Part shown: in pieces, positions 51,228 through 64,000 of the stretch
How positions within the stretch are numbered: position 1 is the first letter of the stretch
How the letters are laid out: each line of letters starts with the position of its first letter
Virus record (IMG/VR): IMGVR_UViG_3300031963_000058
Span: 24,100-88,099 of that record
Reading direction: 5' to 3' (one strand)
Origin: a virus
Taxonomy: Duplodnaviria > Heunggongvirae > Uroviricota > Caudoviricetes
Length of the DNA stretch: 64,000 nt
Notes under the pieces: model-generated
What the model was told of the DNA's origin: nothing
Database searches by the model: none
What the model saw: only the letters and a program-made list of their open reading frames with translations
Program-made: the position numbers and the translations under genes

Positions 51228-51533
51228 TTACTTTGGTGTATGAAGTTTATATGTAACCTCTTTAATAGTATTTATATGAATTTCAAATTTATTCTCAATC
51301 CAGGAACTAAAAATCATTTCAAAGTCTTCTTTTGATACTGGGACTATCTTAGTAAGATCATCTCTGAATCTTTTATAGTAATACACAACACCGGTCCAGT
51401 GAATGCGGACGATAGAGGCACGATCATCTTTATTGTAAAGCTCTATATTATTTTTGTTTTCAATGACAATCAGCTTGTCAAACCTGGAATAGAACCAGTT
51501 CATGGTTCTACGATATGATTTATGGTTGTCCAT
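51228..51533 (-). CDS. ~100-aa tandem array family, subfamily A, copy 1
   Basis: Has the family pattern Y..I..W.Y..FDKL.V...........IVRIH..G.VYYY..F...L.KI.P....DFE....W.E.KF.I. Confidence 0.55.
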   Translation of the reverse strand: MDNHKSYRRTMNWFYSRFDKLIVIENKNNIELYNKDDRASIVRIHWTGVVYYYKRFRDDLTKIVPVSKEDFEMIFSSWIENKFEIHINTIKEVTYKLHTPK

Positions 51534-51572
51534 AATAATTAATTTGTTAGTTTAATTTTAAAAATTTTTTGA

Positions 51573-51872
51573 CTATTGTGATATTGAACTTGCGTGTATC
51601 TTAATTACTTTTATTTTAAATTTATCTTCGATCCAGGATGTTAAAAACAGTTCGAAGTCGTTGATACTTATTGGTATAATTTTAACTAGATCAAGCATAA
51701 AATCTTCATAATAAAAGATTTCACCTTCATTGTTTATCAAATATACTCGTATAACAGAATCTTCTTCTATATCAAAAAGATTTATTTTTTCATTGGTAGT
51801 ATAAAACGTCAGCATATCAAACTTGTGATAAAACCATTTCCTGATTTTAATATATGATTTTTCATTCTTCAT
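51573..51872 (-). CDS. ~100-aa tandem array family, subfamily A, copy 2
   Basis: Contains KWFYHKFDML...IRVYLINNEGEIFYYEDF...DFELFLTSWIEDKFKIKV. Confidence 0.6.
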   Translation of the reverse strand: MKNEKSYIKIRKWFYHKFDMLTFYTTNEKINLFDIEEDSVIRVYLINNEGEIFYYEDFMLDLVKIIPISINDFELFLTSWIEDKFKIKVIKIHASSISQ

Positions 51873-51885
51873 GATCCTGTGTTTC

Positions 51886-52170
51886 TTAGATTTTGACGTG
51901 CATTTTAGTTAGTTTTATTTTGAATTTATCTTCGATCCATTCTCTCAGAAACATTTCAAAATCTGCATTTTTAATAGGGATAACACTAACCAGATCATAC
52001 CTGAAGAATACGAAATAAAATGCTTCTTTTTCCGATTTATATATACGGACCACAGAAAACTCATGCTTATCCCTAAGCACTATTTTTTCAGTGTCCTCAG
52101 ATTCTTTCAACTTATCAAATTGGTTATAAAACCATCTCCTGGTTTTAAGATATAACTTATTTTCGCTCAT
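51886..52170 (-). CDS. ~100-aa tandem array family, subfamily A, copy 3
   Basis: Contains RWFYNQFDKL...VVRIYKSEKEAFYFVFF...DFEMFLREWIEDKFKIKL. Confidence 0.6.
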   Translation of the reverse strand: MSENKLYLKTRRWFYNQFDKLKESEDTEKIVLRDKHEFSVVRIYKSEKEAFYFVFFRYDLVSVIPIKNADFEMFLREWIEDKFKIKLTKMHVKI

Positions 52171-52196
52171 ATAACATATACTTTGATTGGGCCATA

Positions 52197-52496
52197 TTAG
52201 TTATAATCACTTTCACGTACATCATCGATTTTTAGGCCGAATTTCTCTTCGATCCATTTTACCAAGAACAATTCAAAATCCGATGTTTCTAATGGTATTA
52301 TTTTAGTTAAATAATATCTGAATCCGGCATAATAATATACCAAAATCTCATCATCATATATATAAATCCGAACAAATTTCGATTTATTATCTTTACTACT
52401 GAGGATTATACGATTTTCATCTGCGGTCACAATCAACTGATCAAATTTCATGTAAAACCATCTTATGACTTTAATATATAACTTATTTTCGCTCAT
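52197..52496 (-). CDS. ~100-aa tandem array family, subfamily A, copy 4
   Basis: Contains RWFYMKFDQLIV...SSKDNKSKFVRIYIYDDEILVYYY...DFELFLVKWIEEKFGLKI. It is preceded by the 26-nt junction ATAACATATACTTTGATTGGGCCATA, identical to the one at 52497. Confidence 0.6.
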   Translation of the reverse strand: MSENKLYIKVIRWFYMKFDQLIVTADENRIILSSKDNKSKFVRIYIYDDEILVYYYAGFRYYLTKIIPLETSDFELFLVKWIEEKFGLKIDDVRESDYN

Positions 52497-52522
52497 ATAA
52501 CATATACTTTGATTGGGCCATA

Positions 52523-52822
52523 TTACTTATAATCACTTTCATATACATAATCGATTTTTAGGCCGAATTTATCTTCGATCCATTCTTTCAAGAAAAATTC
52601 AAAGTCCAATCTTTCTAATGGTATTATTTTAGTTAACTGATATTTGAATCTAATATAATAATATACCAAAATCTCATCATCATATATATAAATCCGAACA
52701 AATTTCGATTTATTATCTTTACTACTGAGATTTATATTATCTTCATCTACAGTCACAATCAACTGATCAAATTTCTTGTAAAACCATCTCCTGGTTTTAA
52801 GATATAATAGTTCTTTACTCAT
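52523..52822 (-). CDS. ~100-aa tandem array family, subfamily A, copy 5
   Basis: The 24-aa block SSKDNKSKFVRIYIYDDEILVYYY is identical to copy 4, while the flanks differ, so the copies are mosaic. Confidence 0.6.
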   Translation of the reverse strand: MSKELLYLKTRRWFYKKFDQLIVTVDEDNINLSSKDNKSKFVRIYIYDDEILVYYYIRFKYQLTKIIPLERLDFEFFLKEWIEDKFGLKIDYVYESDYK

Positions 52823-52831
52823 AATACTATT

Positions 52832-53131
52832 TTAATAAACCGATTCATTGAATGGCCGGATAATTCGCACATTTATATTGAATTTATTTTCAACCCAATT
52901 GGCTAAAATAGTGTCAAAGTCGGATTGTGATATCGGGAACAGTTTAAACAACTTGTGCATATAATTTACATCGTAAAATACTTCACCATAATTTAGATAA
53001 ATTCGAATATCGCATTTAAAATCAATATATGTGTGAAGATGTAAAACTTTGCGTTCAGTGACAATTGTCAACTTTTCAAACTGATTATAAAACCATCTCC
53101 CGGCTTTAACATAAAATTTTAGTTTACTCAT
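52832..53131 (-). CDS. ~100-aa tandem array family, subfamily A, copy 6
   Basis: Contains RWFYNQFEKL...IRIYLNYGEVFYDVNY...DFDTILANWVENKFNINV. Confidence 0.55.
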   Translation of the reverse strand: MSKLKFYVKAGRWFYNQFEKLTIVTERKVLHLHTYIDFKCDIRIYLNYGEVFYDVNYMHKLFKLFPISQSDFDTILANWVENKFNINVRIIRPFNESVY

Positions 53132-62446: not shown

Positions 62447-62450
62447 TTTA

Positions 62451-62789
62451 TTAAAATTTTATCTTAAAGTTATGTTCATCCATCGGGCTCCACCGTGAAA
62501 ACCTCATCTTGATATTGATCACCTTTATTTTAAATGTATCTTCAACCCATCTCTTCAAAAGAATTTCAAAATCAGTCTGTTCCAACCGAACTATCTTATT
62601 AATTTTATCTCTGAATTTAGTATAGTAGTAAACCAAACTAGATTTTTTATCAATCATGATTTGAACGAATTCGTCATTTTTGTGACGAAGATACAAATAA
62701 TTTCCTTTATCACGTTCAACCACTTCCAGTTCTTCAAACTTTCTGTAAATGAATATTTTTATTTTATTATAATACTGTTCTTTGCTCAT
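62451..62789 (-). CDS. ~100-aa tandem array family, subfamily B, copy 24
   Basis: Contains MSKEQYYNKIKIFIYRKFEELEV...DFEILLKRWVEDTFKIKV. Confidence 0.6.
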   Translation of the reverse strand: MSKEQYYNKIKIFIYRKFEELEVVERDKGNYLYLRHKNDEFVQIMIDKKSSLVYYYTKFRDKINKIVRLEQTDFEILLKRWVEDTFKIKVINIKMRFSRWSPMDEHNFKIKF

Positions 62790-62801
62790 GTTATCTAAAT
62801 T

Positions 62802-63134
62802 TTATTTTAAAGGTATTTTTAGCCAAGCACGTGATCGTGTTTTTTTGCCATGTAAGATTTGTTTTACCTTCACTTGAAAAGTATTTTCAATCCATTTGCT
62901 CAAAAATAACTCAAAATCAGTCGTTTCCAACGGGATTATTTTATACATTTTTTTACTTAACCTATAAGAGTAGTAAACCTTACCTGATTTTTTTTCAATT
63001 AATATCTGGGCATATATTTCATTATTATAACGAATATACAAAACATTTCCTTTATCACGTTCAACCACTTCCAGTTCTTCAAACTTTCTGTAAATGAATA
63101 TTTTTATTTTATTATAATACTGTTCTTTGCTCAT
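62802..63134 (-). CDS. ~100-aa tandem array family, subfamily B, copy 25
   Basis: N-terminal 22 aa are identical to copy 24 (MSKEQYYNKIKIFIYRKFEELEVVERDKGN). Continues ...DFELFLSKWIENTFQVKV and the tail ends LKIPLK. The antisense ORF 62831..63097 is rejected. Confidence 0.6.
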   Translation of the reverse strand: MSKEQYYNKIKIFIYRKFEELEVVERDKGNVLYIRYNNEIYAQILIEKKSGKVYYSYRLSKKMYKIIPLETTDFELFLSKWIENTFQVKVKQILHGKKTRSRAWLKIPLK

Positions 63135-63163
63135 GTTATATAAATTTTATTTGGGATGTATCT

Positions 63164-63478
63164 TCAAATTCGGTACCATGAATAATTACTGTACCACAGG
63201 GTATTGATCACTTTTATTTTAAAGGTATCTTCAACCCATCTATCCAAAAGAATTTCAAAATCACGCATTTTCAACGGAACCATCTTATTAATTTTATCTT
63301 TGAATCCAGTATAGTAGTAAACCAAACCTGAGTTTTTATCGATCACAATCTCAGCATAACCTTTGTTTTTATAACCAAGATACAAAAAATTTCCATTATT
63401 ACGGTCAATAACTTCCAGCTCATTAAACCTTTTATAAACGAATCTTTTTATTTTACTATAATATTCTTCTTTGCTCAT
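63164..63478 (-). CDS. ~100-aa tandem array family, subfamily B, copy 26
   Basis: Contains MSKEEYYSKIKRFVYKRFNELEV...DFEILLDRWVEDTFKIKV. Confidence 0.6.
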   Translation of the reverse strand: MSKEEYYSKIKRFVYKRFNELEVIDRNNGNFLYLGYKNKGYAEIVIDKNSGLVYYYTGFKDKINKMVPLKMRDFEILLDRWVEDTFKIKVINTLWYSNYSWYRI

Positions 63479-63490
63479 GTTATCTAAATT

Positions 63491-63820
63491 TTATTTAGTT
63501 GGTATCTTCAACCAACGAATCAGGTGGCTTGGGATTACAGCAGGGTGACTTACCTTAATTTGAAAGGTATTTTCAATCCATCCTTTCAAGAATATTTGAA
63601 AATCAGCATTTTCTAAACGAATTGTATAAAAAAATTTGTCTCTAAAATTATAATGATAGTATACTTCACCTGATTTTTTATTAATTAGGATATTTGCATA
63701 TTCACTATTTTTATAATGAAGATATATTTTCTTTCCATTAGTACTTTTGAATACCTCTAGTTCATCAAACTTTCTGTAAATTAATTTTTTTATTTTATTA
63801 TAATATTCTTCTTTGCTCAT
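63491..63820 (-). CDS. ~100-aa tandem array family, subfamily B, copy 27
   Basis: Contains MSKEEYYNKIKKLIYRKFDELEV...DFQIFLKGWIENTFQIKV. The tail ends LKIPTK. Confidence 0.6.
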   Translation of the reverse strand: MSKEEYYNKIKKLIYRKFDELEVFKSTNGKKIYLHYKNSEYANILINKKSGEVYYHYNFRDKFFYTIRLENADFQIFLKGWIENTFQIKVSHPAVIPSHLIRWLKIPTK

Positions 63821-63836
63821 ATCATTTAGTTTTTAT

Positions 63837-64000
63837 TTAGTTGGTATCTTCAACCAGAAAATAGAGCAATACATCGGTTACGTCGATGGTCTTAACCTTC
63901 ATTTGAAAGGTATCTTCAACCCATTTGCTCAGAAGTATTTCAAAATCAACCTTTTTTAAACGAATTAACTTACAAATTTTGTCTCTAAATTCATAGTTAT
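63837..64000 (-). CDS. ~100-aa tandem array family, further copy, 5'-truncated by the window end
   Basis: The partial reverse-strand translation reads ...VDFEILLSKWVEDTFQMKVKTIDVTDVLLYFLVEDTN*. The array continues beyond the window. Confidence 0.5.
   Translation of the reverse strand, partial: NYEFRDKICKLIRLKKVDFEILLSKWVEDTFQMKVKTIDVTDVLLYFLVEDTN

Follow-up and report, generated by a model that had tools for sequence, protein, structure and literature searches.

Type VI-B systems of CRISPR (short palindromic repeats, clustered and regularly interspaced) provide the RNA-cutting Cas13b immunity of Bacteroidota. Large viruses are known for gene accordions, such as the amplification of poxvirus K3L, and, in jumbo phages, for families of paralogues; an accordion is an amplification that is recent and whose copies are near-identical. 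The repeats of type VI-B arrays are defined by a length of 36 nucleotides (nt), by a loop of poly-U and by the terminal sequences GUUG and CAAC (10.1101/092577). On the viral side, mini-arrays and solitary repeat units (RNA anti-CRISPRs, Racr, and crRNA-like regulatory RNAs) have been described that are non-coding, at least ~90% identical to the host repeat and single or few per genome, with no type VI case among them (PMC10651486, PMC11656645); the SRUFinder criterion for a solitary repeat is likewise at least ~90% identity to a host CRISPR repeat (PMC10651486). Neo-CRISPR arrays arising from off-target spacer integration are credited to Nivala et al. 2018, as cited in 10.1101/148544, where the case given is the E. 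coli chromosome with over-expressed Cas1-Cas2. The present analysis concerns a 64,000-nt stretch (the window) of the caudoviricete IMG/VR record IMGVR_UViG_3300031963_000058, positions 24,100 to 88,099, whose minus strand carries a long head-to-tail array of small paralogous genes. From the fifteenth copy upward these genes end in a 36-nt repeat, a unique segment of ~30 nt and a truncated repeat, and the antisense strand of the full repeat partially resembles the repeats of Cas13b loci.

The gene array and its repeat module

The array consists of 37 complete minus-strand open reading frames (ORFs) of 94-119 amino acids (aa), numbered c1 to c37 by coordinate, and a truncated 38th copy that is complete in L001 (9316-9642). 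Intergenic gaps range from -26 to 78 nt and in many cases measure exactly 12 or 29 nt. A hidden Markov model (HMM) built from the copies matches exactly the 38 array ORFs (worst expect value E = 4e-17) and nothing else in the window at E <= 10, while average-linkage clustering resolves two groups, A (c1-c10) and B (c11-c37), with mean protein identities of 36% inside A, 47% inside B and 31% between them. Across all copy pairs identity spans 17-76% (mean 40%), and array neighbours are 47% alike versus 31% for copies 30 positions apart. The parent contig (ena:ERZ27247984:k141_1797313; 277,584 bp) holds 43 co-oriented copies, a 210-aa gene and seven copies on the opposite strand, a total of 50. 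Within subfamily B, the ratio of nonsynonymous to synonymous substitution (dN/dS) over codons 1-80 is 0.46 in the median, as expected of genuine ORFs subject to moderate purifying selection. These results bear out the initial annotation on the copy number and the split into 10 A and 27 B members, on the extension beyond the window end, on the confinement of the family to the array within the window, on its share of about 20% of the window, and, through dN/dS and the range of identities, on an old and maintained array. Its view that such an array is unusual for a phage-like element calls for a caveat, as this genome has no fewer than four further families of tandem paralogues.

The chance that the array is an assembly artefact, with collapsed or expanded repeats, is practically negligible. 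Related arrays are indeed hard to assemble, and the related IMG/VR contig breaks inside its own. However, six loci from other samples and assemblers (L001-L004, L006 and L008) reproduce the window array in the same order at 100% identity over 1.9-10.8 kb, another (L007) is 99.5% identical, and the copies differ from one another by 24-83% in protein, which excludes wrongly joined reads of a single gene as their source. An eighth locus, L005 (JGI 3300008117), is a mosaic strain variant: relative to window positions 59600-63200 it has one stretch of 92% identity flanked by stretches of 100%, together with two deletions of ~90 nt that truncate copies, a pattern that reveals continuing recombination in natural populations.

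Read along the minus strand, a unit comprises an ATG, 80 codons, a TGG, the full repeat (DR1), a unique segment of 28-33 nt and the truncated repeat (DR2), which abuts the ATG of the next gene. DR1, GTTGAAGATACCTTTCAAATGAAGGTGAnnnACACC, makes up the last 12 conserved codons (VEDTFQ.KV..T), and its third codon positions are no more conserved than the rest of the gene. DR2 has the form GTTGAAGATACC nnnn AAATAAAA nTTAnATnAy and is matched at 17-24 of 24 positions in c16-c38 and at 15 of 24 in c15. The spacing from DR1 to DR2 is 64-69 nt, a multiple of 3 in only about one third of the window units; between DR2 and the following DR1, many units have a distance of exactly 277 nt. The frame of DR2 is 0 in six copies (LVEDTNKI-like), +1 in 11 (WLKIPxK-like) and +2 in six, with no preference; in frame +2, the TGA within GTTGAAG terminates the ORF. 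The 5' 12 nt of DR2 are ~85% conserved although they are not in frame and lie at a distance of 26-37 nt to the ATG, and the 3' half sets TAA, TAG and TAA/TGA stops across the three frames directly before the ATG. Whereas the initial annotation treated the whole unit as protein, c15-c38 end in this composite module, and the C-terminal tails (..WLKIPTK) are mostly DNA repeat read out of frame. To judge from the sequence, the protein tails in DR2 are read-through, in agreement with the low confidence of the structure model past residue ~100 (below).

The 25 unique segments, 28-33 nt each, are no more similar to one another than shuffled sequences (median best identity 0.357 vs 0.367), with the exception of those of c29 and c30 (93%); the genes that flank them differ at just 23-46% of synonymous sites. 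Their GC content is 43%, versus 31% for stop-free 30-mers from the same phage (z = 5.8), and composition is the one sign of a foreign origin. They also stay open in the reading frame of the gene: stops occur in the gene frame in 1 of 243 codons, against 11-14 in ~235 codons (~5%) in each of the five other frames. At the c26/c25 junction, where two full repeats precede the truncated one, the repeats are identical over exactly 36 nt and diverge fully thereafter, and the two segments, 29 and 30 nt long, are unrelated. The 3' modules of c29 and c30 are near-identical while the N-terminal halves of these genes are only ~50% identical, which argues for gene conversion of the module.

Distant homologues share this gene-end feature, each lineage having its own gene end as the repeat. 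In a metagenome scan, ~30 low-GC contigs with 3-25 units were recovered (sizes including 311,818 bp, 219 kb and 110 kb), in which a constant block, GTTGAAGATACCATTCAAAATGGGGTGAAACACACC (VEDTIQNGVKHT), is followed by 30 unique nt, and the N-terminal domain preceding these arrays is often recognised by the family HMM. VEDT-type genes carry LKIP tails and VENT-type genes carry LRIP tails, a pairing predicted by the +1 reading of the same DNA. In one relative (L037), a single ORF runs through at least 24 units; in another (L011), all of the 4-5 units are in frame; in a third (L012), two identical 36-nt repeats flank unrelated segments of 29-30 nt, with a third repeat beyond, at periods of 66 and 65 nt. 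Taken together, 179 of 180 periods in the relatives' arrays are multiples of 3, and in-frame stops amount to 1 in 1410 codons versus 4-9.5% in the other frames. The variable 10-mers have the composition of random sequence (Leu 10.3%, Ser 8.9%, Arg 8.2%), and no residue favours a particular position. Related contigs have identical segments in common and differ by whole 66-nt units, and in the most distal units the repeats are degenerate while the segment EDGDWLDGDER is conserved across loci. The layout is seen in the giant-phage contigs L037 (2089-3988), L016 (Ga0315907_10000007, 311,818 bp), L040 and L031, where an N-terminal superfamily domain is followed by up to ~25 units of VEDTIQNGVKHT plus 10 random-like residues, again with the conserved acidic end. 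Separately, L045 and L049 carry more than 20 copies of tandem 22-nt repeats (GTTGAAGATACCGATAnTAGCA), which fitted the pattern of the scan solely through the 66 nt that three periods make; they seem to have no relation to the phage arrays. A GC-rich viral contig that is otherwise unrelated (L010, 1398-1417) has one exact 20-mer of the repeat, judged a chance match; it sits on the other strand in an ORF that by eye resembles a NYN/LabA-like gene.

As for the encoded protein, AlphaFold2 run on the 37-copy alignment gave a predicted local distance difference test (pLDDT) score of 88.8, dropping to ~60 after about residue 100. The model runs from a helix through four strands and two helices to a last strand (a-b4-a-a-b), and each gene encodes a new alpha/beta domain of ~92 aa. 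No significant match of sequence or fold was obtained in Pfam, PHROGs, PADLOC or PDB, solved structures of anti-CRISPR proteins among them, and the matches in BFVD are solely uncharacterised proteins of uncultured Caudovirales. The family is rare, with 32 clusters in a set of 5.8 billion proteins and 72 representatives in one of 1.84 billion; a single-protein scan with c32 matched one IMG/VR contig, and INPHARED yielded no relatives at either the DNA or the protein level. The family has not been described before.

Likeness to the repeats of type VI-B loci

Given the 36 + 30 geometry, a link to CRISPR was tested directly. A GTDB-wide scan (596 Gb) for GTTGAAGATACC occurring three times at a spacing of 62-70 nt returned one locus, L013, in a Chitinophagaceae metagenome-assembled genome (MAG). 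This is a bona fide type VI-B locus, with Cas13b (NF038190, E = 1e-202), Csx28 (E = 2e-23) and 36-nt repeats separated by 30-nt spacers; on the cas13b strand its repeat reads GTTGTAGCAGACCCAACTTTTTAGGGTATCTTCAAC, the period of the host arrays is 66 nt, and its GC content of 42.5% is near that of the phage segments. The 3' 12 nt of the plus-strand phage repeat, GGTATCTTCAAC, are identical (12/12) to the L013 repeat.

Repeat orientation was fixed by the published PspCas13b repeat, and further Cas13b loci were fetched by protein homology alone to avoid circularity; the independent repeats obtained include GTTGTGATAGGCCCAATTTTGTAGGGTAACTTCAAC, GTTGTGGTAGTCCCGATTTTGCAGGGTAACTTCAAC and GTTGTATAAGCCCTAATTTTGTAAGGTATTTACAAC. 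Four independent Cas13b repeats match the plus-strand phage repeat (e.g., GGTGTGATTCACCTTCATTTGAAAGGTATCTTCAAC) at 23-25 of 36 positions, exactly in register. A match of at least 23/36 is reached by 1 of 102,000 36-mers outside the array on both strands (a tail of ~1e-5) and by none on the minus strand of the array. Among the repeats compared, the best identity is 25/36 (69%), in addition to the 12/12 at one end to L013. A covariance model (R1) was built from six Cas13b repeats with L013 left out. On either strand of the window it scores DR1 of c19, read on the plus strand, highest (18.8 bits, E = 0.029). Eight of its 13 window matches are plus-strand repeat sites, the seven besides c19 at E = 2-8. 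The same model scores the held-out true repeat of L013 at 37.6 bits, versus 10-19 bits for the phage repeats.

The defining features of type VI-B repeats are shared unevenly. In the plus-strand consensus (..ACCTTnATTTGAAAGGT..), T is at least 90% conserved at columns 18-20, so that a U-rich loop is present, the sense strand being A-rich; CAAC is common on the plus strand, GUUG occurs in c19 only, and the closing stem is mostly lacking. All but one of the 25 copies leave the pair 2-35 open (24 of 25), 60% of the outer helix can pair, the pairing does not exceed that of shuffled sequences (127/500), and no pair covariation was seen. A conserved RNA hairpin in DR1 was accordingly rejected: the DKF copies (GATAAATTT) break the stem, and there is neither covariation nor synonymous constraint. 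Three host arrays begin with a repeat whose 5' end is degenerate and which retains the 3' 19-22 nt, the same part as is kept in DR2. Rfam gave no match in the array, a negative that is uninformative since the real Cas13b array in L013 escapes Rfam as well. Overall, as far as its sequence tells, the element fails as a working type VI-B repeat yet is significantly similar to one.

Several features of the bacterial loci were noted in passing. Just downstream of csx28, L013 has a further repeat at 6338-6372 on the minus strand (33.7 bits), a hint that another array may flank the cas genes where the locus sequence ends. L025 (772-1993) is an orphan bacterial array on a 4.8-kb contig of 49% GC without a cas gene; its 19 repeats of 36 nt (GATGTTGAAGATACCTTTTTTAAATCAACCTACAGC) contain GGTATCTTCAAC offset by 3 nt, and two of its 30-nt spacers are near-duplicates. 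L051 (1856-2180 and ~2400-2950) is one Cas13b locus with two different arrays in series, GTCGCAG..CGAC and GTTGTGA..CAAC. Both L051 and L052 (294-1004) have the conserved motif CATAATTTGGCCGAAyTGCTTACAG ahead of the first repeat, which is degenerate, and a similar terminator-like last segment (AGCAAAnCC.CAAA..) before cas13b.

Possible origin and role of the module

It is tentatively proposed that the module is CRISPR-derived and gives each paralogue a random C-terminal tail. A repeat-like gene end would receive insertions of ~30 bp with duplication of the 36-bp site, an event that may be likened to CRISPR spacer integration or to 'neo-CRISPR' formation by the host adaptation machinery, and sister lineages would pile up as many as ~25 such units in frame. 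As 66 nt equal 22 codons, the insertions would stay in frame, and only stop-free ones would survive, either because translational coupling is needed or because the peptide itself matters. The outcome would be one scaffold with ~50 different, essentially random C-terminal peptides, that is, a standing diversity library in an arms race, probably for anti-defence. Insertion with site duplication would explain why the repeat of each lineage is its own gene end and why the geometry is 36/30, and it would also account for the foreign, mutually random segments, for the whole-unit differences between contigs and for the trailer-like distal units. An anti-defence or arms-race role of the predicted proteins is plausible, with the host Cas13b system possibly the target. 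The arms-race family envisaged initially survives in this form, the type VI-B repeat likeness making anti-defence plausible, whereas roles in decoying, superinfection exclusion, immunity or host takeover are not directly supported. Because the window repeats are unlike present-day Cas13b-binding hairpins, the making of CRISPR RNA (crRNA) decoys is probably not the main role of the array.

Several observations weigh against this origin. The window lacks a cas gene (the sequence covered amounts to ~74 kb of the 277-kb contig), and no protospacers of the segments were found in the window, INPHARED, IMG/VR (searched with four 24-mers) or the host cas loci examined; nor did host spacers match 317 kb of phage DNA. 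The likeness to Cas13b repeats is incomplete, being concentrated in the 3' two-thirds; a single copy has E < 0.05 under the covariance model R1, which does not detect the repeats of L037 type. DR2 does not copy the DR1 of its own unit, so the window modules would be old and inherited, not recent insertions. Moreover, the 12-aa motif V-E-[DEN]-x-[FIL]-[QN]-x-x-V-x-x-T is kept at the protein level across lineages despite different codons, which fits ordinary protein selection.

That last point leads to the explanation, regarded as rather unlikely, of an ordinary fast-evolving phage multigene family with a C-terminal protein repeat of 22 aa (12 conserved and 10 variable), in which the Cas13b likeness would have arisen by chance and DR2 would be an intergenic stop-and-restart element kept DR1-like by unequal crossing-over and gene conversion. 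The long stop-poor ORFs of the relatives, which span up to ~25 units with periods almost always divisible by 3, would be expected of it, as would the shared motif, whose first residues belong to helix 3 in the model, the conserved variable segment EDGDWLDGDER and the lack of extra third-position conservation or pair covariation in DR1. The three-frame stops 2-20 nt before each ATG fit termination-reinitiation in a host whose genes lack Shine-Dalgarno sequences, and recombination at repeats is visible in the c26 junction and the c29/c30 modules. It is harder to reconcile with the conservation of the out-of-frame 5' end of DR2, with constant parts that are near-identical DNA alternating with variable parts that are mutually random, GC-shifted and of random amino acid composition, with a 36 + 30 split that is exactly that of type VI-B arrays, with the in-register match to independent Cas13b repeats at an empirical tail of ~1e-5, or with the finding that the sole GTDB locus having the 12-mer at array spacing is a Cas13b array. 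An ordinary in-frame protein repeat is present in the L037-type relatives; the window, with periods of 64-69 nt and DR2 frames split 6/11/6, does not have one.

Alternatively, the array might act through RNA, an unlikely explanation in which each unit yields a plus-strand crRNA-like transcript that loads into or titrates the Cas13b of a type VI-B host, in the manner of an RNA anti-CRISPR or extraneous crRNA, or redirects it, as viral mini-arrays do; in a variant, the sense mRNAs serve as anti-repeat sponges. The small proteins would be associated anti-CRISPR proteins. The canonical orientation, with U-rich loop and CAAC 3' end, does lie on the plus strand, as does the top covariance-model match, and the plus-strand order of truncated repeat, spacer and full repeat mirrors the start of L052, L051b and L013. 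One over-expressed extraneous crRNA cuts Cas13b defence ~1000-fold (PMC13187072); Racrs adjoin acr genes, and the survey that masked ORFs and reported no type VI cases would miss such elements (PMC10651486). Plus-strand matches to a sigma-70-like TAAACA-N16-TATAAT also lie just upstream of several units. They are, however, not enriched (54 vs 46.6 in shuffles), and the lost closing stem, the absence of GUUG from all copies but c19, pairing at shuffle level, the free synonymous sites of DR1 and the gap in model score to the held-out true repeat all count against RNA mimicry. Identity to the host repeats compared, at most 69%, is below the 90% of viral solitary repeats (PMC10651486). In addition, crRNAs from the plus strand would pair along their whole length with abundant mRNAs of the phage itself. 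The sites at (+) 61025-61052, 61708-61735, 62059-62086 and 62403-62430 lie antisense to conserved N-terminal codons, just upstream of the truncated repeat; such recurrent sites could be candidate antisense promoters, although the consensus may not be the host's.

An extension of the CRISPR-derived origin, considered decidedly improbable, is that the phage gene ends are live integration sites for the Bacteroidota II-C Cas1-Cas2, each acquisition adding an in-frame unit, or alternatively that the ~100 repeats form a sink diverting adaptation or Cas13b from host immunity. II-C Cas1-Cas2 also serves VI-B arrays. If integration were live, spacer acquisition would write random peptides into phage proteins, producing a translated CRISPR array and an unknown route of diversification. 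Three further ideas were discarded: DR2 as a sigma-70 or Bacteroidota promoter, with unfit spacing and no enrichment in a scan; programmed translational bypass or frameshifting between repeats, where only a stop codon follows DR2; and an integron-like cassette array or diversity-generating retroelement, where the cassettes are mutually homologous and no attC-like site, reverse-transcriptase gene or template repeat was seen.

Genome context and comparison with known systems

The window has a GC content of ~29-30%, and a few of its ORFs match phage families (e.g., DUF932/phrog_12094 and SPFH/phrog_200); one related contig is an IMG/VR viral genome fragment. A Shine-Dalgarno-like 4-mer precedes only 1 of 52 ORFs in window positions 1-51000, the leaders being A/T-rich. 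Genes of this kind are typical of Bacteroidota and their phages, and their prevalence points to a Bacteroidota host, which would be able to carry type VI-B CRISPR. A scan of 20 further ORFs of the window and of 10 kb past it brought up nothing resembling Cas, and the largest window ORF has 472 aa. Four further tandem paralogue families in the window indicate that gene-family expansion is a general habit of this genome; their scanned representatives have no Pfam or PHROG match. Outside the window, a conserved 210-aa gene with an overlapping 137-aa ORF separates the divergent arrays (L009 2478-3435; L001 6748-7380), without Pfam matches, and 3' of the short array lie a 129-aa W/G-repeat protein (GxWxxGxW) and a family of ~150-aa paralogues. 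The coordinates of the window features are collected in Table 1.

Table 1. Positions of the array, of representative repeat modules and of other features in the window
Feature	Position	Strand	Remarks
c1 to c37, complete tandem genes	51228..63820	(-)	ORF list, alignment, HMM; transcribed c37 -> c1
Truncated 38th copy, 3' part only	63821..64000	(-)	Second repeat in frame (..FLVEDTN*)
Subfamily A, c1-c10	51228..54451	(-)	Most diverged copies; second repeat absent or decayed; clustering, unit 3' sequences
Subfamily B, c11-c37	54529..63820	(-)	From c15 upward repeat + unique segment + truncated repeat; clustering, unit anatomy
DR1 of c32, full 36-nt repeat	61818..61853	(+) reads GGTGTGATTCACCTTCATTTGAAAGGTATCTTCAAC; (-) encodes VEDTFQMKVNHT	25/36 to Cas13b repeats
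Unique segment of c32, 32 nt	61786..61817	(-)	GC 47%; read through in gene frame; length, GC, stop depletion, dissimilarity
DR2 of c32, GTTGAAGATACCTTTCAAATAAAATTTAGATAACAT	61750..61785	(-)	First 24 nt repeat DR1; TAA, TAG, TAA in three frames; abuts c31 ATG, 61749-61751
DR1 of c19, GUUGCGUACAACCUUUAUUUUUAAGGUAUCUUCAAC	57296..57331	(+)	Sole copy with both GUUG and CAAC ends; top covariance-model match in window
c26/c25 junction, R-S-R-S-R'	59637..59801	(-)	Two full repeats + truncated repeat
c29/c30 near-identical 3' modules	60761..61131	(-)	Segments 60761-60789 and 61103-61131, 27/29 identical
Paralogue family, 8 ORFs, ~300 aa	20197-28610	(+)	23-35% identical
Paralogue family, 4 ORFs, 170-188 aa	34118-36416	(-)	
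Paralogue family, 3 ORFs, ~130 aa	47203-48561		
Paralogue family, 3 ORFs, 155-278 aa	46382-47113, 48642-49478, 50267-50734	(+)	
tRNA-Met (CAT)	13730-13802	(+)	Single gene

In the literature searched, no counterpart was found for a tandem (~50x) type VI-like viral CRISPR element translated within protein genes, and the main viral repeat-mimic survey could not have seen such elements, as it masked ORFs. Should the link to CRISPR be borne out, no virus would previously have been reported with a type VI-like CRISPR element, and the locus would be the first case of repeat-spacer units kept translatable inside protein genes. It would then offer a testable handle on how giant Bacteroidota phages contend with Cas13b, and on the question whether CRISPR adaptation can act on phage DNA with heritable products. 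Even if the link fails, the locus presents a new protein family, confidently folded in the model, with 50 diverged copies in one genome, and an unusual mode of evolution in which constant 36-nt blocks alternate with random-looking segments.

Compared with type VI-B arrays, the phage module has the same 36-nt repeat, ~30-nt unique segments, U-rich loop and CAAC 3' end, shares GGTATCTTCAAC with the Chitinophagaceae Cas13b-Csx28 repeat and agrees with four others at 23-25/36, and its degenerate terminal repeat keeps the same end. It differs in lying antisense within protein genes, where the ribosome reads through it, in mostly lacking the 5' GUUG and the closing stem, and in having one spacer per unit with a gene body of 241 nt between units; no cas13b lies near the phage array in the sequence covered, and no protospacers were found. 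Viral mini-arrays and Racr units likewise combine a phage-borne repeat-spacer-repeat, a degenerate second repeat and a resemblance to the repeats of a host CRISPR type with adjoining small genes of unknown function. Here, in contrast, ~50 units lie in ORFs, identity to known repeats is at most 69% and the hairpin is not conserved; a full repeat and spacer stand within a stop-free ORF and promoter-like sites are not enriched, whereas a Racr-type unit would be expected in non-coding DNA with a promoter and terminator of its own. Neo-CRISPR formation offers a parallel in the combination of a spacer-length insert with duplication of a repeat-length site, as seen at the c26 junction and in L012, but the present units sit in phage genes, would be long inherited and kept in frame, and have yielded neither an integrase nor donor protospacers. 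Finally, like the tandem multigene families and gene accordions of large viruses, the array lies in a viral genome of large size and lines up diverged paralogues head to tail, and it bears traces of unequal crossing-over and gene conversion, whereas its copies are 17-76% identical and carry a structured non-protein module at their ends.

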